Part shown: positions 6,093 to 61,330 of the stretch, in pieces
Layout: each line of letters begins with the position of its first letter
Numbering within the stretch: position 1 is the first letter of the stretch
Notes under the pieces: model-generated
The model's input: only the letters and a program-made list of their open reading frames with translations
What the model was told of the DNA's origin: nothing
Database searches by the model: none
Program-made: the position numbers and the translations under genes
IMG/VR virus record: IMGVR_UViG_3300021958_000028
Span: 61,108-125,107 of that record
Source: a virus
Lineage: Duplodnaviria; Caudoviricetes
Direction: 5' to 3' (one strand)
DNA: 64,000 bases

Positions 6093-6760
6093 TGTTTAAT
6101 CATGTTGAAATAGAAGTCCCACAGTTGTCACGAAAGACAATCGATGGGGTTAGGTATTATGATACACCCTCTGGTAAGAAGTTAGTTTCTATCACATCGG
6201 TCATCAGTCACTATAACCGTGAGATATTTGTTAATTGGAGGAAGAGAGTTGGTAATGAAGAAGCAAATAAAGTAACTAAACAATCCACCAGTCGTGGAAC
6301 TGATACTCATACTTTGATCGAACATTACTTAAAGAATGAGGATCTTCCCACAGTTCAACCTCTTTCTGATATGTTATTCAAGATTGCCAAGGGCGATCTA
6401 AAGAACATAGATAACATACATGGACTAGAAACTCCTCTATACAGTGAGTATCTGGGTATTGCAGGAACCGTAGATTGTATAGCCGAGTATAATAAAGAAT
6501 TGGCTATCATCGACTTCAAGACATCCAAGAAACCAAAGAAAAGAGAATGGATTGAAGGATATTTTGTACAGTGTGCAGCCTATGCTTGTATGTTGTATGA
6601 ACTGACTGGTTTGACAGTCAAAAAATTCGTTATTATTATGACCTGTGAAAATGGAGAGTGTGAAGTCTATGAAGAGTATGATAAAGCCAAGTATATCAAA
6701 CTACTCACAAAGTATATTAGAGAGTTTGTTGAATTTCAATTGCATGACACTAATGCCTGA
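6092..6760 (+). CDS. PD-(D/E)XK exonuclease
   Basis: SITSV, RGT..H, AGTVDC, IIDFKTS, Q..AYA motifs. Confidence 0.85.
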   Translation: MFNHVEIEVPQLSRKTIDGVRYYDTPSGKKLVSITSVISHYNREIFVNWRKRVGNEEANKVTKQSTSRGTDTHTLIEHYLKNEDLPTVQPLSDMLFKIAKGDLKNIDNIHGLETPLYSEYLGIAGTVDCIAEYNKELAIIDFKTSKKPKKREWIEGYFVQCAAYACMLYELTGLTVKKFVIIMTCENGECEVYEEYDKAKYIKLLTKYIREFVEFQLHDTNA

Positions 6761-8154: not shown

Positions 8155-8643
8155 ATGAATTATCAGAAAATTTATGCTGTCCACCCTGACGGAAAAGTAA
8201 TCAGGGAGGATGGAAAAGAGATGAGACAATATGAAAGAGATGGATACAAGTCCGTCTGTCTGAAGTGTACCGATCAAAAGTTTCGTTTCTTCTATATTCA
8301 CAGATTGGTATGTCATGAATGGGTCTCCAACCCTTCTAACTTACCTATTGTACTTCACTTAGACGACGACCCTTCCAACAACCACTGGACCAACCTCCAA
8401 TGGGGAACACAGAAGGATAATATTCGAGACATGATGAATAAGGGTCGAAGAGGAAACCCCCGAAGGATTAAACATTATAAACTCGTATCACCCGAAGGAG
8501 TGCTGTACGAAATAACCAACATGAGAGAGTTTTGTAAGGACAAAGACCTTGATCCTGGGGCAATGACAAAAATGCATGCTGGAATAAAAGGAAGAGCAAC
8601 ACATAAAGGTTGGACTAAATACCAGGGACAGTTGGGAAACTGA
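8155..8643 (+). CDS. Free-standing HNH homing endonuclease
   Basis: IHRLV...VLHLDDDPSNNHWTNLQWGTQKDN HNH motif plus a C-terminal NUMOD-like DNA-binding domain; inserted before gp32. Confidence 0.88.
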   Translation: MNYQKIYAVHPDGKVIREDGKEMRQYERDGYKSVCLKCTDQKFRFFYIHRLVCHEWVSNPSNLPIVLHLDDDPSNNHWTNLQWGTQKDNIRDMMNKGRRGNPRRIKHYKLVSPEGVLYEITNMREFCKDKDLDPGAMTKMHAGIKGRATHKGWTKYQGQLGN

Positions 8644-8755: not shown

Positions 8756-9691
8756 ATGAACTTCAGCAATCTTAAAAAGAACTCCTCTCTGGGGAACCTA
8801 ACACAAAAACTTATCCAACAAGTCGAAAAGGATAACAAGGGTTCAGGTGGAGGACCAGACGAAAGACTCTGGAAACCTGTAATGGATAAGTCCGGTAATG
8901 GTTATGCCGTTATTCGTTTCCTGCCTGCTCCCAATGGAGAAGATCTTCCTTGGGTAAAAACATTCTCCCATGCTTTCCAGGGCCCTGGTGGATGGTACAT
9001 TGAAAATTCTCTGACCACTATTGGTCAACAGGATCCTATCGGTGAACTAAACCGTGAACTGTGGAACACTGGTAATGAGAGTGATAAAGATACTGTTCGT
9101 AAGCAAAAGCGTAAACTGTCTTACTATGCAAACATCTATGTCGTAAAAGATCCTGCCAATCCTCAAAACGAGGGTGGAGTATTCCTTTACAAGTTTGGTA
9201 AGAAGATCTTTGACAAGATCATGGATGCAATGCAACCTGAGTATGAGGATGAGACTCCTATCAATCCCTTTGACTTCTGGCAAGGTGCCAACTTCAAACT
9301 GAAACTGGCAAAAGTTGCTGGTTATTGGAACTATGATAAGTCTGAGTTCGCTGCAACATCTGCTCTTCTGGATGATGATGATGCCTTGGAAGCAATCTGG
9401 AATAAGGAGTATTCTCTCCAAGAACTGGTTGCTCCCGATAAGTTCAAGTCTTATGATGAACTGAAGAAGCGTCTTGATTATGTTCTTGGTAACAAGAAAG
9501 CAAAGGCCGTTGAAGCAGAAGAGACTGAGTATGATAGTTATTCTTCTACTGAACAAAGTCGTGTCAGTGAAGAAGATGCTTTGAAGAAACTGGAACAACA
9601 AATCATCCAGTCCAACTCTGCACCTCAGACTTCAACTAATGATGATGAGGATGATGCCATGTCATATTTCTCAAAATTGGCTGATATGTGA
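8756..9691 (+). CDS. gp32: Single-stranded DNA-binding protein gp32
   Basis: DERLWKP..DKSGNGYAVIRFLP, WYIENS, GANFKLK, acidic tail ending YFSKLA; start moved to ATG 8756. Confidence 0.95.
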   Translation: MNFSNLKKNSSLGNLTQKLIQQVEKDNKGSGGGPDERLWKPVMDKSGNGYAVIRFLPAPNGEDLPWVKTFSHAFQGPGGWYIENSLTTIGQQDPIGELNRELWNTGNESDKDTVRKQKRKLSYYANIYVVKDPANPQNEGGVFLYKFGKKIFDKIMDAMQPEYEDETPINPFDFWQGANFKLKLAKVAGYWNYDKSEFAATSALLDDDDALEAIWNKEYSLQELVAPDKFKSYDELKKRLDYVLGNKKAKAVEAEETEYDSYSSTEQSRVSEEDALKKLEQQIIQSNSAPQTSTNDDEDDAMSYFSKLADM

Positions 9692-27855: not shown

Positions 27856-27987
27856 ATGAAGGATTATTTCTGTATCATGACATGGAATTTTATGCTTGAA
27901 TGTATACGTTATCATTGGATACATAAGTCAGAAAAAGATCCTGTGCAATTCGTGAAAAATCTCAATCCTGATGAGGTAGTTCTTTGA
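27856..27987 (+). CDS. Small hypothetical protein (43 aa)
   Basis: MKDYFCIMTWN...; fills the gap and overlaps the next start. Confidence 0.45.
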   Translation: MKDYFCIMTWNFMLECIRYHWIHKSEKDPVQFVKNLNPDEVVL

Positions 27988-28277
27988 AACAACTGTTTAT
28001 AGTATCTATTGGTGACAACTCCTGTGTTACTCATGACGGACACGTTCAGATGGGGATCTTCAATCATTCTGTAGAGAAACATCTTGAACTATGTTCCGAA
28101 CAAGAATGGCAAGTAACGTATTGGATGCCCGATCCATTAGGGTTACGATATAAGAGAGCAAACTTCCAGCATACTATGAAGGCAAATGAAGGTTCTGCTA
28201 GAACTGATAATGCTGGTGATAGTCGTCCAAGAGACTTTCCTGACCAAGCAACAAATAGATTAGAGAGAACCGTCTAA
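27984..28277 (+). CDS. Hypothetical protein
   Basis: TTG start with GAGG RBS, 97 aa. Confidence 0.6.
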   Translation: MKQLFIVSIGDNSCVTHDGHVQMGIFNHSVEKHLELCSEQEWQVTYWMPDPLGLRYKRANFQHTMKANEGSARTDNAGDSRPRDFPDQATNRLERTV

Positions 28278-39119: not shown

Positions 39120-41828
39120 ATGGCAAGACTAAAAAGCGGAAAAGTTTTAAATTCTGATGGGAATTTTATAACTTTAGAAGAAACACAAAGATGGCTTAAC
39201 AACCCAAGTTTAAATGGTCAGGTATTATCATCAGATACTGCTGGTAATCGTTTTTGGATTAACCCACCAGCAGGAGCTCAAGGTGGTCCAGGTGCTCAGG
39301 GTTCTACAGGTTCAACTGGTCCTCAAGGTCTTCAAGGACCTCAGGGGCAAGATGGACCTCAAGGTTTTCAAGGTGTTTCTGGAATAAGTGGAAGTCAAGG
39401 ATTCCAAGGTGTTCAAGGTTCTCAAGGTGCTGCTGGAACATCAGTAATCATTATTGGATCAGTTCCTGATGTTTATGTAAATCCACCCAACGATCCTCAA
39501 ATAACATTAAATGCAGCATTTCCTTCTGCAGTTACTTCAAATGCTGCAATTGATCAAGGATTGGGTGAATTGTGGGTTTATGATGGAGCAACTTGGAATA
39601 ATGTCGGACAAATTGTAGGCCCTACAGGACCTCAAGGAAATCAAGGAAATCAAGGATATCAGGGTACACAAGGATCTGTAGGACCTCAAGGTAATGTAGG
39701 TGCTCAAGGATTACAGGGGGTTCAAGGTTCTACAGGTTTCCAAGGTATATCTGGTGGAGCTGGATTTCAGGGAAATCAGGGTGAACAGGGTTCTGTTGGA
39801 TCACAAGGAGTTCAAGGTGCTCAGGGATCTCAAGGTCGTCAAGGTGTTCAGGGATCAGTTGGTGCCACAGGTCCAACGGGTCCTCAAGGGGTCCAAGGTT
39901 CTACAGGGTTAAGAGGTTTTCAAGGTTACCAAGGTCGTCAAGGGGCTCAGGGATCACAAGGTTTTCAAGGTTCTCAAGGTAATGATGGAACATCAGTAAG
40001 TATTATTGGCGCAGTTCCTGATGTCAATGTAAATCCACCAAATAATCCACAAACAACATTAAATACTGCTTTCCCATCAGCTACTGTAGGAAATGGCGTA
40101 ATTGATGATGCTACTGGTGATTTATGGGTTCTTAATTCACAATGGAATAATGTTGGCCAAATTGTAGGTCCACAAGGTTCACAGGGTATTCAAGGTGTTC
40201 AAGGTTCACAAGGAAATCAAGGAATACAAGGATCTCTAGGATCTCAAGGAGTTCCTGGAATACAAGGTAGTGTTGGTGCACAAGGAGCACAAGGTTCTAC
40301 CGGTACACAAGGACCACAAGGTTTCCAAGGAGTACAAGGTGCTCAGGGAGCGGGAGTACAAGGTGCAACTGGAGCAACTGGACCACAAGGTTTTCAAGGT
40401 TCTACAGGTGATGTTGGGGCAACTGGGCCCACTGGAGCAACTGGACCACAAGGTGTTCAAGGTTCTACGGGTACTGGCGGAGCAACTGGGTCCACTGGAC
40501 CAGCAGGACCACAAGGTTTCCAAGGAGTTCAAGGTGCTCAGGGATCACAAGGTCGTCAAGGTCGTCAAGGTTCTACAGGTACTGGTGGAGCAACAGGTCC
40601 AACTGGTGCTCAGGGATCTCAAGGTCGTCAAGGATCTCAAGGTCGTCAAGGATCTCAAGGTCGTCAAGGATCTCAAGGTCGTCAAGGATCACAGGGACAA
40701 GGTGGTACATCAGTCACCATTGTAGGATCAGTTCCATCCGTAACAACATCAAGTCCAAACACAACACTAACTTCTGATGACACTGGATTTTCTTGGTACC
40801 CTCCATCAACTGGTAATGGTGTAATTGCAACAGATACTGGTGATTTATGGGTCTACGATGGATCTGATTGGAATAATGTAGGTCAAATTGTAGGTCCCCA
40901 AGGTTTCCAAGGAGTTCAAGGTGCTCAGGGATCACAAGGTCGTCAAGGTTCTACAGGTACTGGTGGATCAACTGGACCAACTGGACCAACTGGTGCTCAG
41001 GGATCTCAAGGTCGTCAAGGATCTCAAGGTCGTCAAGGTTCTGCAGGTCTAACAGGTTCTACAGGTTCAACCGGTCCAACGGGTCCTCAAGGTTTACAAG
41101 GTCGTCAAGGATCTCAAGGTCGTCAAGGTTCTACAGGTTCTACAGGTTCTACAGGTTCAACCGGTCCAACAGGTCCTCAAGGTAACCAAGGTCGTCAAGG
41201 ATCTCAAGGTCGTCAAGGTTCTACAGGTCCAACAGGTCCAACAGGTCCTCAGGGCAACCAAGGAAGACAAGGTTCTCAAGGTCGTCAAGGTGCTGTAGGT
41301 GCTCAAGGTTCTACAGGTCCAACAGGTCCAACAGGTCCTCAGGGCAACCAAGGAAGACAAGGTTCTCAAGGTCGTCAAGGTTCTACAGGTCCAGCTGGAC
41401 CTTCTAATGTAATATCTGCATCGGCCACTACTACTAATTCAACATTTTATCCAGTATTTGTTGCTGGAACTGGTAATCGAACACCAAGTATTAGAACGTC
41501 TTCTGTTGCATTAAGTTTTAATGCTTCCTCTGGAACTTTATCAGCAACTAATTTTAATTCTGGTTCTGATGAGAGACTTAAAGAAAATGTGGAAACTATT
41601 AATAATGCACTTTCTACAATAGAAAAAATACGTGGTGTTAAATTTAGTTGGAAGTCAAGTGGTAATCAATCAATTGGTGTAATTGCACAAGAAATTGAAG
41701 AAATTTTACCAGAACTTGTTGAAGGTGATGATAATAAAACTGTAAACTATAGTGGAATTATTGGTGTTCTTGTTGAAGCTGTGAAGGAACTTTCTACAAG
41801 AGTAGAGGAATTAGAAAATGATAAATAA
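39120..41828 (+). CDS. Collagen-like tail fibre with C-terminal intramolecular chaperone (peptidase S74)
   Basis: Long Gly-X-Y tracts separated by three related GTSV...LWV...[10 protein letters not shown] domains; SDERLKEN...GVIAQE..V.Y..L.EAVKEL C-terminus. Confidence 0.9.
40614..40690 (+). repeat. 18 bp tandem repeat x4 (GSQGRQ) in the collagen gene
   Basis: GGATCTCAAGGTCGTCAA, four exact copies. Confidence 0.9.
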
Positions 41829-41902
41829 TAACAGTATAACGTACCGAGTGGAGACGCGACGATGGTAAGAGACAACTTTTCATTGACATGGGAGGGTGAC
41901 TA

Positions 41903-42490
41903 ATGGCTATTCAGATTTCAGGAACTACTGTTATTGACAACAGTAGGAATATCACTAATTTTGAATCTGTTTCTGGTAATGGAGTAGCTACTCAGGCAGA
42001 GGCCGAAGCAGGTACAAATAATGATCAAGTAATGACCCCATTAAGGGTCACACAAGCAATCGCAGCTGCAGGAGGCGGTATGGTAGACGACGACATTAAC
42101 TGGTCAGGGTGCAATGTAGGATGTGCCGTCAGAGGTGGCGGTAATGTATTCCGTAAAACTACAGGACTCATTTGGATTGTAGCACCATCAACAACACAAG
42201 TAGGTTCCACATGGCCTATGGGTTATTGTAATGGTGAGGGTGGTGCTACTCCAAATCAAGCCCAAAGAATCACTGGTCGTTCCGGGTGGTTTATTCCTGA
42301 TCTAGGAATGCTTCAATGTGGTTATGCATGTAGAACTTATTGGGACAGTTACTCCACGACCAGCTACTGGAGTTCTACTGAGTTCACTACCAGCACTGCG
42401 TACGTTGTGTTCTTTAATAGTGGCGGCGCGCTCGGCGGCAATAAGAGCGGCATCCGCTGTGTTCGTCCGTTTCGGGTCGTGTGCTATTGA
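41903..42490 (+). CDS. DGR target protein: putative fibre-tip adhesin with C-terminal C-type-lectin-like (Lcl/DUF1566-like) variable domain
   Basis: MAIQISGTTVIDNSRNI N-terminus, ATQAEAEAGT fibre motif, W.IP...L, YWSSTE...A..V.F..G...VRPFR. Confidence 0.88.
   Translation: MAIQISGTTVIDNSRNITNFESVSGNGVATQAEAEAGTNNDQVMTPLRVTQAIAAAGGGMVDDDINWSGCNVGCAVRGGGNVFRKTTGLIWIVAPSTTQVGSTWPMGYCNGEGGATPNQAQRITGRSGWFIPDLGMLQCGYACRTYWDSYSTTSYWSSTEFTTSTAYVVFFNSGGALGGNKSGIRCVRPFRVVCY
42353..42476 (+). repeat. DGR variable repeat (VR)
   Basis: 124 bp ungapped match to 43024-43147 with 26 mismatches, all at TR adenines. Confidence 0.95.
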
Positions 42491-42531
42491 ACTTTGTACT
42501 TTGATTTTTGTATTTTGTAACGAGATTTTTT

Positions 42532-42867
42532 ATGGTAGAAGAATTGAAAATATATAAAGATACAAGTGAATTAGTTAAAAGAGTTTTTATAATAGTTAAA
42601 AATTTTCCTAGAGATTATAAGTATACTATTGGATCTAGAATTCAAAATACTGCATTAGATTGTGTTGAGTTGATTTATAAAGCATCTAGACATAAACAAA
42701 AGGAAAAAGACTTAGATGAGTTAGTATCTTCTTTAGATTTTTTATCTTATTTAATTAGAATTTCTAAAGATATGAATATCATTACTGAAAAACAATATGC
42801 TCTTTATATTGAAAGAAGTGTTCCTTGTGTAAAACAAGCATCAGGATGGTTGAGGTCTGCTAAATAG
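42532..42867 (+). CDS. avd: DGR accessory variability determinant (four-helix bundle)
   Basis: L.IYK....L......NFPRDYKYTIG.RI, L..LIRIS.D..II..KQY, KQ..GW; start moved to ATG 42532. Confidence 0.9.
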   Translation: MVEELKIYKDTSELVKRVFIIVKNFPRDYKYTIGSRIQNTALDCVELIYKASRHKQKEKDLDELVSSLDFLSYLIRISKDMNIITEKQYALYIERSVPCVKQASGWLRSAK

Positions 42868-43023
42868 TTGAGTCATTCATAATGAGCAGAATATTATTTC
42901 ATCAAGAAATAGTAGTGTACTCAACTCACGCGATTTTCATACCTTAATCGGGTAAAAGTTTTAAATTATATTTAAAACACTTTCTTCTAAAGAGAAACAT
43001 GTGAATGAAAATCAAATTGATGT

Positions 43024-43147
43024 TCCACGAACAACTACTGGAGTTCTACTGAGAACAATACCAACAATGCGTACAATGTGAACTTTAATAATGGCAACAC
43101 GAACAACAACAATAAGAACAACATCAACTGTGTTCGTCCGTTTCGGG
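43024..43147 (+). repeat. DGR template repeat (TR)
   Basis: Non-coding copy of VR with 18 AAC/AAT codons in the VR frame. Confidence 0.95.
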
Positions 43148-43158
43148 AGTGAGAAGTT

Positions 43159-44199
43159 ATGAATGACATCACATTTGAAGAAGTTGTAACAGCATATTAC
43201 GACTGCAGAAGAAATAAAAGAAATACATCACAACAATTAGAATTTGAGTTTCATCTAGAAAAAAATCTCTGGAAACTTTATGAAGAACTAAATCAAGAAA
43301 TTTTTATTCCAGAAGCACATAATTTTTTCATCATAACACATCCCAAACCAAGAGAAGTTTGGTGCTCAAATTTTAGAGATAGAATAGTTCATCATTTAAT
43401 TTATAATAGAACAAATTATATTGAGAGTGACTATATTGATAATACTTTTGCATGTTTAAGAGGAAAAGGAACTTTAAGATGTGCTCAAAAAGTACAAAAA
43501 ACTATGAGATCTTTATGGAAAGATAAAGATAATTACAAATTTCTTCATGTTGACATTGCAAACTTTTTTGTTTCCATTGATAGAGAAATTATTAAGAAGC
43601 AATTATATCCAAAAATAGAAAATGAAACTACAATAAAGTTAATAGAAATATTTTTAAATCAAAGTCCCACAGAAAACTATTATTATACTGGTGATCCAAA
43701 ACTTAAAGAATTAATACCTGATAGAAAATCATTATTTGGGAAATCTACTGGTCTTACTATTGGAAATTTGACATCTCAAATTTTTGCCAATCATTACTTA
43801 AATGAATTTGACTGGTACTGTAAAGAAAATATATCTCAATATTACTTTAGGTATATGGATGATTTATTATTTTTTATTCATAAAGATCAAAAAATATATC
43901 AAATTATTGATGATATTAATGATTATTTGGCAACTTTAAATATGACTTTAAATTCATCAAAAACAAAACATAATAAACTTGAGCATGGTGTGAATTTTGT
44001 TGGATACTTTATTAGACCTTTCTGCAAATATGTAAGAAATTCAACTAAACAGAGAGCAAAATTGGCAACAGAATGGCAATCAATTAATTCATATTATGGA
44101 CTCATGAGACAAGCAAACTGTTATAATTTAAGAAAAAAGATTGCTATTCAAAACAATATAAATATGATAAAATATGAAAAACTGAATCAATTAATATGA
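43159..44199 (+). CDS. DGR reverse transcriptase
   Basis: PKPREV, FRDRIVHH, DIANFF.SID, GLTIGNLTSQ (SQ motif of DGR RTs), RYMDD, NFVGY. Confidence 0.95.
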   Translation: MNDITFEEVVTAYYDCRRNKRNTSQQLEFEFHLEKNLWKLYEELNQEIFIPEAHNFFIITHPKPREVWCSNFRDRIVHHLIYNRTNYIESDYIDNTFACLRGKGTLRCAQKVQKTMRSLWKDKDNYKFLHVDIANFFVSIDREIIKKQLYPKIENETTIKLIEIFLNQSPTENYYYTGDPKLKELIPDRKSLFGKSTGLTIGNLTSQIFANHYLNEFDWYCKENISQYYFRYMDDLLFFIHKDQKIYQIIDDINDYLATLNMTLNSSKTKHNKLEHGVNFVGYFIRPFCKYVRNSTKQRAKLATEWQSINSYYGLMRQANCYNLRKKIAIQNNINMIKYEKLNQLI

Positions 44200-44822
44200 A
44201 CTTGATAAGCATTTATTCAACTCCAATTTGGCAAACAGAATATCCAGAATTTGAAGAAAATAAGACACAATTTATTCAAGCAATAAGAGACTTAAAAGAA
44301 AAAAGTCCAGAAGGAATTAATAAATCAAATCTTTTTGGATATCATTCTTCTGAAAGAATTCATGAAGAAGAACCAAGAATTCATCCATTACTTCAATATG
44401 TTGGAGAAACGGTAGTTAAGGCAGCAGAAGATCTTGGTTTTATTTCAGTTGATGTTGCATTGACTTCTGTTTGGTTTAATATTAATGATAGTCGTCAGTG
44501 TATGAATGCAGAACATACTCATGGAGATACATTTTCTGGAGTATTTTATCTCAAAGCACCAGAAGGTAGTGGTAAATTAGTTTTGCAAAATCCAGGAATT
44601 AACAGATTGTGGCAAGGACTTTCTTTGGTTGAAAAGAAAAATCAATTTACTGGAGAAAAGATTAGTATTGCTCCAGTAGAAGGTAATATTGTAATATTCC
44701 CTTCATATCTTCCTCATTGGGTAGAACCTAATGATCATGATGATGAAAGAATTTCAATTTCTTTCAATGCAATTTGCTTACCTGAAGGTTCACTTGGAGT
44801 TCCTCAACAAAATGCAGAATAA
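44196..44822 (+). CDS. 2OG-Fe(II) oxygenase (TIGR02466-like)
   Basis: W.NIN, HTH, SGVFYL, IFPSYL.H.V.PN, RISISFN. Confidence 0.88.
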   Translation: MNLISIYSTPIWQTEYPEFEENKTQFIQAIRDLKEKSPEGINKSNLFGYHSSERIHEEEPRIHPLLQYVGETVVKAAEDLGFISVDVALTSVWFNINDSRQCMNAEHTHGDTFSGVFYLKAPEGSGKLVLQNPGINRLWQGLSLVEKKNQFTGEKISIAPVEGNIVIFPSYLPHWVEPNDHDDERISISFNAICLPEGSLGVPQQNAE

Positions 44823-60751: not shown

Positions 60752-61330
60752 ATGACCACCACTTATCAACAATTTGTTGATGATCTTCATTCTATCCCTG
60801 ATAAAGTTTTTATCGATTTTCTAATTGAATGTAAGAAAATTTATATGAGATATTCTGGAGTAGGACTTTATAATTTTGTCAAAGGTCATAAGGTTGAACA
60901 TGAATTTGTGAAATATGTTAAATCATATATTGACTTGAGAGCCAGTAAAAAACAATCACCAGATGATCCCGATTGTGTTTATGGTGAGAATTATCTCCCA
61001 GATATTAAAACAAAGCAAGATGGTCTTAAGACAAAGAAAAATGGCGAATTTTATGCAAATCCATGGATCTTAAAGAATCCCTATTCAAATAAAGATGTTT
61101 TTACAACTAGGGCAGACTCATATATCTTAATTGATCCCACTTGTAGTAAAATTGCGGTCGTTGATTCAGAATATTTCTCTGGATGTTTTAATAATCAAAA
61201 CTCAACTACTTGTTATTTCAATGTATGTCGAGATCAAGTTGACATGATTTTTGATGGTACCGGCAAAATTCCTTATGTCGAACCAATTGAACCCATCAGT
61301 GAGTATGATTTAATGGAGTCAATTCCATGA
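60752..61330 (+). CDS. Hypothetical protein, possible PD-(D/E)XK nuclease
   Basis: E...PD(C)...DIKT arrangement; flanked by repeats. Confidence 0.5.
   Translation: MTTTYQQFVDDLHSIPDKVFIDFLIECKKIYMRYSGVGLYNFVKGHKVEHEFVKYVKSYIDLRASKKQSPDDPDCVYGENYLPDIKTKQDGLKTKKNGEFYANPWILKNPYSNKDVFTTRADSYILIDPTCSKIAVVDSEYFSGCFNNQNSTTCYFNVCRDQVDMIFDGTGKIPYVEPIEPISEYDLMESIP

Follow-up and report, generated by a model that had tools for sequence, protein, structure and literature searches.

How do the T4-like cyanomyoviruses, which rank with the main killers of Synechococcus and Prochlorococcus in the sea, keep pace with the surface variation of their hosts? This question of marine virus ecology is raised in a concrete form by one locus of the window, i.e., the 64,000-nt stretch analysed here (positions 61,108 to 125,107 of IMG/VR record IMGVR_UViG_3300021958_000028). 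A reading made from the sequence alone had proposed that this locus is a complete, apparently active diversity-generating retroelement (DGR). The analysis supports a complete DGR in a T4-like cyanomyovirus. It is very probably a canonical one, which sits in the tail-fibre and hyperplastic region and homes cDNA derived from its template region (TR) into the gene of a lectin-fold target protein. All features described below lie on the plus strand of the window.

Host genome and lifestyle

The assignment to the T4-like cyanophages stands, and the genome is that of a large virus of Synechococcus-like marine cyanobacteria. The DNA polymerase gp43 is 70-74% identical to those of RN05-S, S-SCSM1, P-TIM68, and S-SM2, with the Synechococcus phage RN05-S at 74%. 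UvsX, a gp41-type helicase, NrdA/B, a gp5-type baseplate hub, and tail proteins are also encoded in the record (125 kb, with an estimated completeness of 62%), and the core genes are closest to those of cultured Synechococcus and Prochlorococcus myoviruses, as in a cyanomyovirus of the Kyanoviridae type. The DGR is located in the tail-fibre and hyperplastic region of this genome. T4-like cyanophages are lytic. When the 125-kb record was searched for lysogeny genes, neither Phage_integrase nor Resolvase was matched; as the record is only 62% complete, this does not in itself prove a lytic lifestyle. The phage is presumably lytic, and mutagenic homing would take place during lytic infection.

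Repeat pair and adenine bias

The cassette is ordered as target gene, avd, a 156-nt leader, TR, and reverse transcriptase (RT) gene. Its signature is a near-repeat formed by the variable region (VR, 42353..42476) and TR (43024..43147), which align without gaps over 124 nt, as first noticed from the sequence alone. The recount returned the same 26 mismatches, all of them at TR adenines (15 to G, 6 to T, and 5 to C), an outcome with a probability of 3e-14 under random placement. Ten of these mismatches fall on position 1 of the codon and 16 on position 2, with none elsewhere; the third codon positions of TR, read in the VR frame, hold zero adenines. The earlier counts of 47 adenines and 18 AAY codons in TR were also recovered, and AAG (Lys181) is indeed the sole TR codon that adenine substitution can convert to a stop. 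VR covers the final 41 codons of the target (residues 151-191 of 195), followed by RVVCY and the stop, and is thus placed at the 3' end of an ORF for a C-type-lectin-fold domain.

The two repeats are identical over an invariant, IMH-like 3' end of 20 nt (42457..42476 in VR, 43128-43147 in TR) and diverge directly after it, as had been claimed. This end is free of mismatches across all six of the TR/VR pairs compared, and internal IMH/IMH* differences of the kind seen in BPP-1 are not visible. Hairpins and cruciforms downstream of VR, of the type found in BPP-1, are not universal among DGRs. None was found here, the DNA fold of 42455-42535 reaching only -1.8 kcal/mol (z = 0.76), and the post-VR hairpin is likewise missing from the DNA fold of one distant clade member. 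The scan for promoters and terminators gave a signal no higher than shuffled expectation. When the whole 125-kb record was searched for further VRs, TR was matched only by itself and by the one VR.

Avd and reverse transcriptase

The accessory gene avd (42532..42867) encodes 111 aa from its ATG, the longest ORF beginning at TTG 42508. Its product is recognized as Avd by Pfam bAvd (4.8e-19, above the cut-off) and by NCBIfam DivGenRetAVD (9e-18, although its 64.5 bits are under the curated 80-bit cut-off). The RT gene (43159..44199; 346 aa; Pfam RVT_1, 2.5e-16) begins 11 nt downstream of TR and carries the DGR-type motifs IGNLTSQ (IGxxxSQ in motif 4) and YMDD (YxDD); both genes are intact, in agreement with the sequence-only reading. 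The closest solved relative of the RT is the Bordetella phage bRT (8ub7_A, 8.5e-26). R65, I201, and Q207 are the conserved equivalents of bRT R74, I181, and Q187, the roles of which are taken from a preprint, and the catalytic and dNTP-contacting residues are conserved. The conserved right-hand neighbour of the RT gene is a 2OG-Fe(II) oxygenase (44196..44822; Pfam 2OG-FeII_Oxy_5, 1e-20), in a cluster of oxygenase, sulfotransferase, carbamoyltransferase, and glycosyltransferase genes directly downstream.

Structured leader RNA

Between avd and TR lies a structured, covariation-supported leader RNA of ~140 nt (42872..43013), with a hairpin at 42883-42923 and a three-way junction whose closing helix joins 42932-42940 to 43005-43013. 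RNAalifold predicted 36 pairs in nine clade members, 18 of them with compensatory changes. Pairing is kept in 96.6% of cells, versus 34-50% with the partners slid, and none of 500 shuffles equalled the observed values. Two long-range helices bracket TR, namely, one of 5 bp (42925-42929 with 43149-43153), the end of which is 1 nt away from the TR/VR homology boundary, and one of 8 bp (42872-42879 with 43160-43167, at the start of the RT ORF). Taken together, they are paired in 115/117 cells, with three covarying pairs, compared to 18-42% in the slid controls. In a scan of 5-bp windows, a single one out of 19,980 reached at least 95% pairing with at least two covarying pairs, and it was that of the 5-bp TR-bracketing helix.

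No Rfam family matched. The initial 240 nt of the RT gene showed only weak conserved structure, and pairing of the 45 nt before TR with the RT 5' region, as in a BPP-1-like duplex, was weak as well. An 11-bp pairing spotted by eye in the window alone failed in the relatives. With only 11 nt between TR and the RT gene, a non-coding spacer (Sp) of the BPP-1 type would not fit after TR. The leader and the two TR-bracketing helices may serve to position or prime reverse transcription, and the leader with its upstream-downstream helices could correspond to the Sp of BPP-1.

Target protein and upstream fibre

The ORF of the target gene (41903..42490; 195 aa) is intact, as reported, and comprises an N-terminal part of ~60 aa and a C-terminal DUF1566/Lcl_C C-type-lectin-fold domain. 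The latter is matched weakly by Pfam Lcl_C (8e-5), as the target is by NCBIfam adhesin_Lcl. Residues 15-55 hold a weak tail-fibre-type motif (PHROG 910, tail collar fibre, 1e-4), of which no paralogues were found elsewhere in the genome. In the AlphaFold2 model, the C-terminal domain (pLDDT 77-95) adopts the DUF1566/Lcl_C C-type-lectin fold, and the N-terminal fibre-motif region is poorly modelled. The Foldseek PDB matches listed for the target are lectin-fold domains only, headed by the Lcl C-terminal domain (8q4e, 1.4e-5, TM 0.71 on the target), with C-type lectins next; its BFVD matches are DUF1566 phage proteins and fibre proteins. The target has 335 metagenomic homologues. Among 80 homologues, entropy reaches 3.27 bits at AAY-coded residues versus 0.58 bits over residues 1-150.

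Directly upstream lies the fibre gene (39120..41828), for which an intramolecular chaperone had already been noted. Pfam identifies a collagen-like fibre (Collagen, 4e-74) that ends in this chaperone domain (Peptidase_S74, 5e-16), and many PHROG tail-fibre families match as well. The lectin domain is most likely a fibre-associated adhesin for a host surface glycan, and the target would be present in the virion and bind the receptor.

The target and its fibre had been likened to the gp37-gp38 pair of T2/T6. What holds of this likeness is a small gene after a long fibre gene, with a product proposed to carry a receptor-binding surface with hypervariable segments; no homology was detected and the adjacency is not conserved (in L007 and L017, see below), and the comparison can be read as an analogy only. 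Neither Pfam nor PHROG gave a gp38 family match, no gp38 chain is among the Foldseek matches listed, and the target thus resembles the gp38-type adhesins of T2, T6, and S16 neither in sequence nor in fold. The window target has a lectin fold instead, and a retroelement takes the place of the point mutation and recombination at work in gp38.

In the proposed mechanism, a transcript of the leader, TR, and the start of the RT gene would be bound by RT and Avd. TR would then be reverse-transcribed with random misincorporation opposite adenines, and the resulting cDNA would take the place of VR in the target gene; the invariant 3' end of 20 nt would serve as its anchor, and its 5' crossover point would vary. 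Up to about 41 adenine positions could be rewritten in this way, and with 18 AAY codons, the ligand-binding face of the lectin domain could exist in about 15^18 protein variants.

Variation among natural relatives

The suggestion that the element is active is supported by the variation among natural relatives, which is confined to VR and to adenine sites. In six independent, related TR/VR pairs, 156/156 mismatches are at TR adenines, and 41 of the 46 shared TR adenines are variable. Because of these 156/156 mismatches, selection alone cannot explain the TR/VR pattern. Two related contigs, L007 and L027, show no difference over 2,173 nt (5' part of the target, avd, leader, TR, and RT), versus 21 differences in the 124 nt of VR. 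For the window itself, the metagenomic protein P0002, found on six contigs, equals the target except for 16 residues, all in 161-185 and all at codons holding TR adenines. Two assemblies of a more distant clade member are set apart by nine differences in 15,032 nt, of which seven fall within VR, each of these at a TR adenine. Between lineages, TR differs at 2-3 of 124 nt, while the VRs differ at about 26 nt, and the lineage-private, non-adenine TR changes (repeat positions 3, 101, and 114) are mirrored in the lineage's own VR. At the level of sequence comparison, information flow from TR to VR is demonstrated, and so is, by comparison across assemblies, an ongoing diversification of natural populations that is confined to VR. 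The closest contig with a TR identical to that of the window (L028) ends before VR.

Distribution, gene order, and repeated loss

The RT belongs to a discrete clade, with a constant gene order in large cyanomyovirus contigs. This clade is absent from 50,697 GenBank phage records, in which the best RT match is 40% identical, and blastn of the cassette against the same records returned a single 62-nt match at chance level. As there is no real match among these records, from which those of the window's own genome may be missing, no isolate in them carries the DGR cassette. The order fibre, target, avd, TR, RT, and 2OG oxygenase recurs in IMG/VR, JGI, NCBI, and Logan assemblies. In most relatives, the target directly follows a Peptidase_S74 fibre; in two related lineages (L007 and L017), it comes after glycosyltransferase/methyltransferase genes instead of a fibre gene.

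The cassette is present in some near relatives and absent from others. In close relatives, avd-TR-RT has been deleted at three different junctions, the right-hand ends of which map to window positions 44107-44150. In L015 and L019, remnants of avd (its 5' end) and of the RT gene (its 3' end) survive at the junction, and these remnants show that the indel of L009, whose direction is ambiguous from that locus alone, is a deletion. One DGR-less relative carries four tandem, frozen target paralogues. About 60% of TR-adenine columns differ between tandem paralogues versus about 31% of the others, and the paralogues of RT-less arrays have many non-adenine changes, as expected after DGR loss. In one clade member, TR is A-poor, VR-like, and bears indels. 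The DGR has persisted vertically in this phage clade, with repeated loss.

A broader scheme is offered tentatively, as possible rather than probable: T4-like cyanomyoviruses would own a vertically inherited DGR lineage with an RNA arranged unlike that of BPP-1, the structured scaffold being upstream of TR. The 5-bp helix (42925-42929/43149-43153) would set or prime the cDNA start and the 8-bp helix (42872-42879/43160-43167) would tie the leader to the RT start codon, while the phages would switch back and forth between one adhesin gene served by a live DGR and, once the DGR is deleted, tandem frozen ex-VR paralogues.

Alternative explanations

An active DGR could act on a target that is not a host-receptor adhesin and instead recognizes an environmental polysaccharide, a phage protein, or a host defence component, or is not part of the virion. 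This is rather unlikely. It would fit the lack of any tblastn match of the target in the 50,697 GenBank phage records, its position behind glycosyltransferase/methyltransferase genes in L007 and L017, and the enzyme cluster directly downstream of the cassette. However, the target lies right behind Peptidase_S74 fibres in most relatives, other phages have the DUF1566 fold as part of collagen, Peptidase_S74, and tail-fibre fusion proteins, and the solved structures closest to the target in fold, Legionella Lcl and Bdellovibrio Bd2740, are adhesin tips. Viral DGR targets are, moreover, mostly tail proteins (Roux et al. 2021, PMC8144416). That the window holds a recently frozen fossil, with a VR written by past homing and a DGR now dead, is improbable, even if decay is common in the clade, as seen from the three deletion junctions and the A-poor, indel-bearing TR. 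Here, avd, TR, and RT are intact, with catalytic and dNTP-contacting residues conserved, TR retains all 47 adenines and is 2-3 nt from sister TRs, and a natural target variant with an identical scaffold has all of its 16 changes at adenine-bearing codons.

Two further readings have a negligible probability. An assembly artefact or a chimeric join that placed a foreign DGR cassette on a cyanophage contig could account for the low GC content of avd and RT (25% versus 37% for the genome) and for the presence/absence polymorphism among near relatives, but neighbouring phage genes are AT-rich too (31-32% GC), and avd 5' and RT 3' remnants are found at the deletion junctions of relatives. The same junctions and gene order are repeated in at least 10 independent assemblies from four sources, and chimerism, a worry raised with the initial proposal, is excluded because of this shared gene order. 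A process free of reverse transcription, in which target paralogues under diversifying selection exchange sequence by recombination or gene conversion, would agree with the tandem arrays of up to four paralogues in relatives and with the enrichment of their variable positions at TR-adenine columns. Nevertheless, the 125-kb record holds a single target copy, zero synonymous or non-adenine changes occur among the 156 mismatches, and it is the array paralogues lacking an RT that gained many non-adenine changes. A canonical DGR that is still homing into the target gene remains the reading adopted here.

Comparison with known systems

The DGR mechanism is well known; what is unusual is the host group, the T4-like cyanophages. 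As in the BPP-1 prototype (mtd-avd-TR-brt), a target with a 3' VR is followed by avd, TR, and RT, substitutions are restricted to the adenines of an AAY-rich TR, the target has a C-type-lectin fold and would be associated with the tail fibre, and the RT carries IGxLTSQ and YMDD motifs. The RT is, however, distant from bRT, with only two local stretches that align, and the target domain is DUF1566/Lcl_C rather than Mtd-type. BPP-1 is a temperate 42-kb podovirus, whereas the window comes from a T4-like myovirus of roughly 200 kb, in which no integrase was detected. The prototype has a hairpin after VR, unlike the window, which also has no non-coding Sp downstream of TR but, instead, a covarying RNA upstream of it. 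This compact layout, with a structured leader and a TR abutting the RT gene, constitutes a second system for the study of RNA positioning and priming in DGRs. The DUF1566-class DGRs of uncultured phages and bacteria share the target fold class, the placement of VR at the very C-terminus, and a scaffold whose residues between the AAY positions are conserved; a large survey by Wu et al. in 2018 reportedly covered DGRs with variable proteins of this class.

Viral DGRs are mostly found in phages of gut Firmicutes, Bacteroidetes, and Proteobacteria, and are rarely detected in open-ocean samples (PMC8144416). No mention of cyanomyoviruses was found in that study (Roux et al. 2021), and full-text literature searches returned no published report of a DGR in T4-like cyanophages. 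The context had been called unusual: this applies to the T4-like cyanophage host group but not to lytic growth as such, DGRs on lytic phages having already been published for cattle-slurry virome contigs (Cook et al. 2021, PMC7981956). Both these and the crAss-like phages, records of which are among the RT matches, carry a DGR without lysogeny genes, as the window phage presumably does, and homing in such phages must, for that reason, occur in lytic replication. They belong to other phage groups, with RTs at most about 30-40% identical. The slurry study was unable to show VR-specific SNP enrichment (PMC7981956), whereas VR-specific variation was seen in the clade of the window by cross-assembly comparison.

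DGRs therefore also occur outside temperate phages and those of the gut. With a working DGR that rewrites a lectin protein of the fibre region, a lytic phage would have a concrete means of changing its host range rapidly, and one that can be tested: sister genomes differing only in VR constitute natural experiments, for which the DGR-less relatives, with their fixed paralogue arrays, are the controls. The best structural match, Lcl of Legionella pneumophila, is not known to be diversified by a DGR. It combines a collagen-like stalk with a lectin domain, a design echoed here by the fibre gene that precedes the target, except that stalk and lectin domain are separate genes in the window and sequence identity is about 20%.

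The DGR cassette and its host genome

On every defining feature tested, the cassette agrees with the DGR family. After the target gene (41903-42490, 195 aa) come avd, which probably starts at the ATG at 42532 and matches Pfam bAvd (4.8e-19) and NCBIfam DivGenRetAVD (9e-18), a 156-nt non-coding leader, the template region (TR), and the reverse transcriptase (RT) gene (43159-44199), starting 11 nt after the TR. The gene upstream of the target encodes a collagen-like fibre of 902 aa that bears a Peptidase_S74 chaperone domain; downstream of the RT are genes for a 2OG oxygenase, a sulfotransferase, and a carbamoyltransferase. The closest solved relative of the RT is that of Bordetella phage BPP-1, the carrier of the prototype DGR (bRT; 8ub7_A, 8.5e-26). 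In the bRT alignment, the IGNLTSQ and YMDD motifs are kept, and R65, I201, and Q207 are the conserved equivalents of bRT R74, I181, and Q187, which touch the template base and the incoming dNTP (cryo-EM preprint, 10.1101/2023.10.23.563531). The GC content of avd and RT is 25% (low-GC stretch 42508-44199), compared with 37% for the genome, 31-32% for the neighbouring genes, and 56% for the variable region (VR), which is consistent with long residence of the two genes in AT-rich phage DNA. From the fibre onwards, the downstream region is AT-rich throughout (31-32% GC).

The source record comprises 125,107 nt and ends with the 64-kb window. The gp43 DNA polymerase, encoded outside the window, shares 70-74% identity with those of the Synechococcus/Prochlorococcus myoviruses RN05-S (originating from seawater), S-SCSM1, P-TIM68, and S-SM2. 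UvsX, a gp41-type helicase, and NrdA/B are also encoded in this other half of the record, while a gp5-type baseplate hub and further tail genes are found inside the window. Together, these genes support the assignment to a T4-like cyanomyovirus that had been made from the sequence alone. T4-like cyanophages are known as lytic phages, and neither a tyrosine integrase nor a serine recombinase was found in the 125-kb record, estimated to be 62% complete; for this partial genome, a lytic lifestyle is presumed from that of the group. Between 20000 and 40000, only 27857-28271, covered by small hypothetical genes, matches cultured cyanophages (S-RIM12, Syn1, S-RIM44) at the nucleotide level, at about 77-81% identity.

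The template and variable repeats

The VR (42353-42476) and the TR (43024-43147) form an ungapped pair of 124 nt with 26 mismatches, all 26 at TR adenines (replaced by G 15 times, T six times, and C five times). As the TR holds 47 adenines, the probability that 26 randomly placed sites would all hit adenines is 3e-14 for this pair alone. Read in the VR frame, the TR contains 18 AAY codons and no adenine in any third codon position, so that substitutions are restricted to positions 1 and 2; a stop can arise by adenine substitution at a single codon, AAG (Lys181). The repeat length and the mismatch, adenine, AAY, and stop-prone codon counts of the sequence-only reading were thus all reproduced. 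VR and TR are identical over the final 20 nt (42457-42476); past them, the VR is followed by the four final target codons, and the TR leads on towards the RT. Within the 125-kb record, no sequence other than this single VR matches the TR.

Evidence of activity in natural relatives

Sister cassettes were found by protein and DNA pattern searches of IMG/VR, JGI, NCBI, and Logan assemblies. Six distinct TR/VR pairs present 26, 28, 27, 28, 22, and 25 mismatches, 156/156 at TR adenines. Across these pairs, 41 of the 46 shared TR adenines are variable in at least one VR, and the five that never changed belong to scaffold codons for Tyr, Ser, Glu, and Lys. Between lineages, the TRs differ at just 2-3 positions, and private non-adenine TR changes (repeat positions 3, 101, and 114) are matched by the same base in the VR of their own lineage; information has thus passed from TR to VR after the lineages separated.

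Comparisons between closely related contigs show that the variation is confined to the VR. L007 and L027 show no difference over 2,173 nt, spanning the 5' part of the target, avd, leader, TR, and RT, and their VRs differ at 21 of 124 bases; L025 and L026 add two more VRs on an identical TR. A metagenomic variant of the window's target (P0002, on six contigs) differs from it at 16 residues, all within residues 161-185 and none elsewhere, and all 16 fall at codons holding TR adenines. The same is seen in a distant clade member whose RT is 60% identical to that of the window, available as two NCBI metagenome assemblies of one large phage (L021 and L022; contigs of 247 kb and 69 kb; VR 6187-6304). 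These show nine differences in 15,032 nt, seven of which lie within 25 nt in the 3' part of the VR, all seven at TR adenines. In DGRs, the IMH end anchors the integrating cDNA and the 5' crossover varies; the 3' clustering of the VR changes agrees with this. Among 80 full-length homologues of the target, entropy reaches 3.27 bits at AAY-coded residues, against 1.05 at other VR residues and 0.58 at residues 1-150. The element was first described as apparently active; its natural relatives vary in the VR at TR adenines, and these sequence comparisons answer much of the question of its activity.

RNA structures around the TR

In BPP-1, an essential structured RNA of 140 nt, Sp, is located between TR and brt; it supplies the adenosine used for priming and base-pairs to the 20 nt that precede the TR (10.1101/2023.10.23.563531). 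The window's DGR lacks such a gap and has instead a conserved leader between avd and TR. It also differs from the prototype in host virus type, target domain subclass, and the absence of a post-VR hairpin, which was looked for downstream of the VR and not found. A search of Rfam gave no match.

The leader is conserved in nine clade members, with a predicted hairpin (42883-42923) and a predicted three-way junction closed by a helix of 42932-42940 with 43005-43013. Of its 36 predicted pairs, 18 show compensatory changes; 96.6% of cells are paired, versus 34-50% with slid partners, and none of 500 shuffles reaches the observed values. Two long-range helices bracket the TR, with 115/117 cells paired jointly. 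One, of 8 bp (42872-42879 with 43160-43167), overlaps the RT start codon and contains one covarying pair, compensated by a synonymous AAT-to-AAC change. The other, of 5 bp (42925-42929 with 43149-43153), has two independently covarying pairs; of the 19,980 possible 5-bp windows of the leader against the TR or downstream region, no other combines 95% or more pairing with two or more covarying pairs. Its end lies one nucleotide past 43147, the last base common to TR and VR. We infer from this layout that the leader may take an Sp-like scaffolding role and that the 5-bp helix could set or prime the cDNA start.

In all clade members, GGAGTG and then the RT start codon come after the 3' boundary of the TR (43145-43158 in the window). 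GGAGTG is likely the RT ribosome-binding site and overlaps a strand of the 5-bp helix, so that the RNA fold and translation of the RT may be in competition. Conserved structure over the first 240 nt of the RT ORF is only weak, in a test limited by coding constraint.

The diversified protein

The AlphaFold2 model of the target, built with 100 homologues, has a mean pLDDT of 74, with residues 60-195 at 77-95. Its best Foldseek match in the PDB is the C-terminal domain of Legionella Lcl (8q4e, 1.4e-5), followed by Bdellovibrio Bd2740 and many C-type lectin-like domains; Pfam Lcl_C matches weakly (8e-5). In BFVD, it matches best with DUF1566 phage proteins and with larger phage proteins that carry Peptidase_S74, collagen-repeat, or tail-fibre annotations. 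Modelling is poor for the N-terminal 60 residues, which match only, and weakly, a tail-collar-fibre PHROG; no paralogue of this region was found elsewhere in the genome.

Because of the lectin-type fold, the fibre-protein matches in BFVD, and the weak PHROG match, the target is best read as a putative fibre-associated adhesin, which would bind a receptor. The earlier reading of a fibre-tip adhesin is supported as a putative one, with the gp37-gp38 pair as an analogy only. In L007 and L017, glycosyltransferase genes, and not a fibre gene, precede the target. Legionella Lcl combines collagen-like and lectin domains in one adhesin, whereas a similar layout is spread over two genes in the window (39120-42490). 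Other phages have the Lcl_C-type lectin fold as a fused part of collagen or Peptidase_S74 fibre proteins (BFVD); here it forms a separate gene.

Distribution, loss, and decay of the DGR

The RT belongs to a discrete clade of 57 clusters (at 90% identity), whose members are 310-349 aa long and share 59-92% identity with the RT of the window; outside it, identity falls to 44% or less. IMG/VR holds only nine other contigs of the clade, the next best matches being 41% identical. No member was found among the 50,697 GenBank phage records, where the best RT is 40% identical and the target is also absent. Gene order is conserved in the clade: fibre(s), target(s), avd, leader, TR, RT, 2OG oxygenase, and sulfo- or carbamoyltransferase. 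Judging by the sizes and completeness estimates of their contigs, clade members have genomes of about 200-245 kb. Other arrangements of the repeats include one TR with two tandem VRs (L035, 1103-1798 and 2342-2471; 14 and 19 mismatches) and a VR in a target gene downstream of the RT (L036, 1-113 and 2434-2546; 12 mismatches), all mismatches being at adenines.

DGRs on lytic phages have already been published (PMC7981956), and very large DGR catalogues exist, in which viral DGRs come mainly from gut phages and DGRs are described as rare in open-ocean samples (PMC8144416). A literature search found no paper describing one in T4-like cyanophages. The weight of the present case lies in the ecological importance of the host group and the clean natural evidence of activity, and further in the pattern of gain, loss, and paralogue arrays and in a testable RNA architecture.

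Several relatives are devoid of the element. L009 and L010 are 99.7% identical to the window over 1.2 kb downstream of the RT, yet lack avd, TR, and RT. They carry four tandem target paralogues of 143, 196, 197, and 198 aa (L009:3587-5977), with nearly identical N-terminal parts and distinct, decayed VR-like ends, an array that looks like a frozen repertoire in place of the DGR. In L015 and L016 (L015:6650-6975), the first 248 nt of avd are fused to the RT's final 93 nt, and in L019 and L020 (L019:6588-6693) the first 28 nt of avd are left. RT remnants at the junctions comprise its last 50-93 nt, and the three junctions are distinct (42513|44149, 42559|44150, and 42779|44107 in window coordinates). 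The avd and RT remnants show that an ancestral DGR was deleted in the relatives and did not enter the lineage of the window by insertion; the DGR is therefore ancestral and has been lost repeatedly. A chimeric contig is ruled out by the gene order common to independent assemblies and by the deletion-junction remnants. L031 apparently illustrates another route of decay, by overwriting or erosion of the template: its avd and RT are intact, and an A-poor, VR-like sequence occupies the TR position (8851-9000), with eight gap positions relative to its VR (8166-8298).
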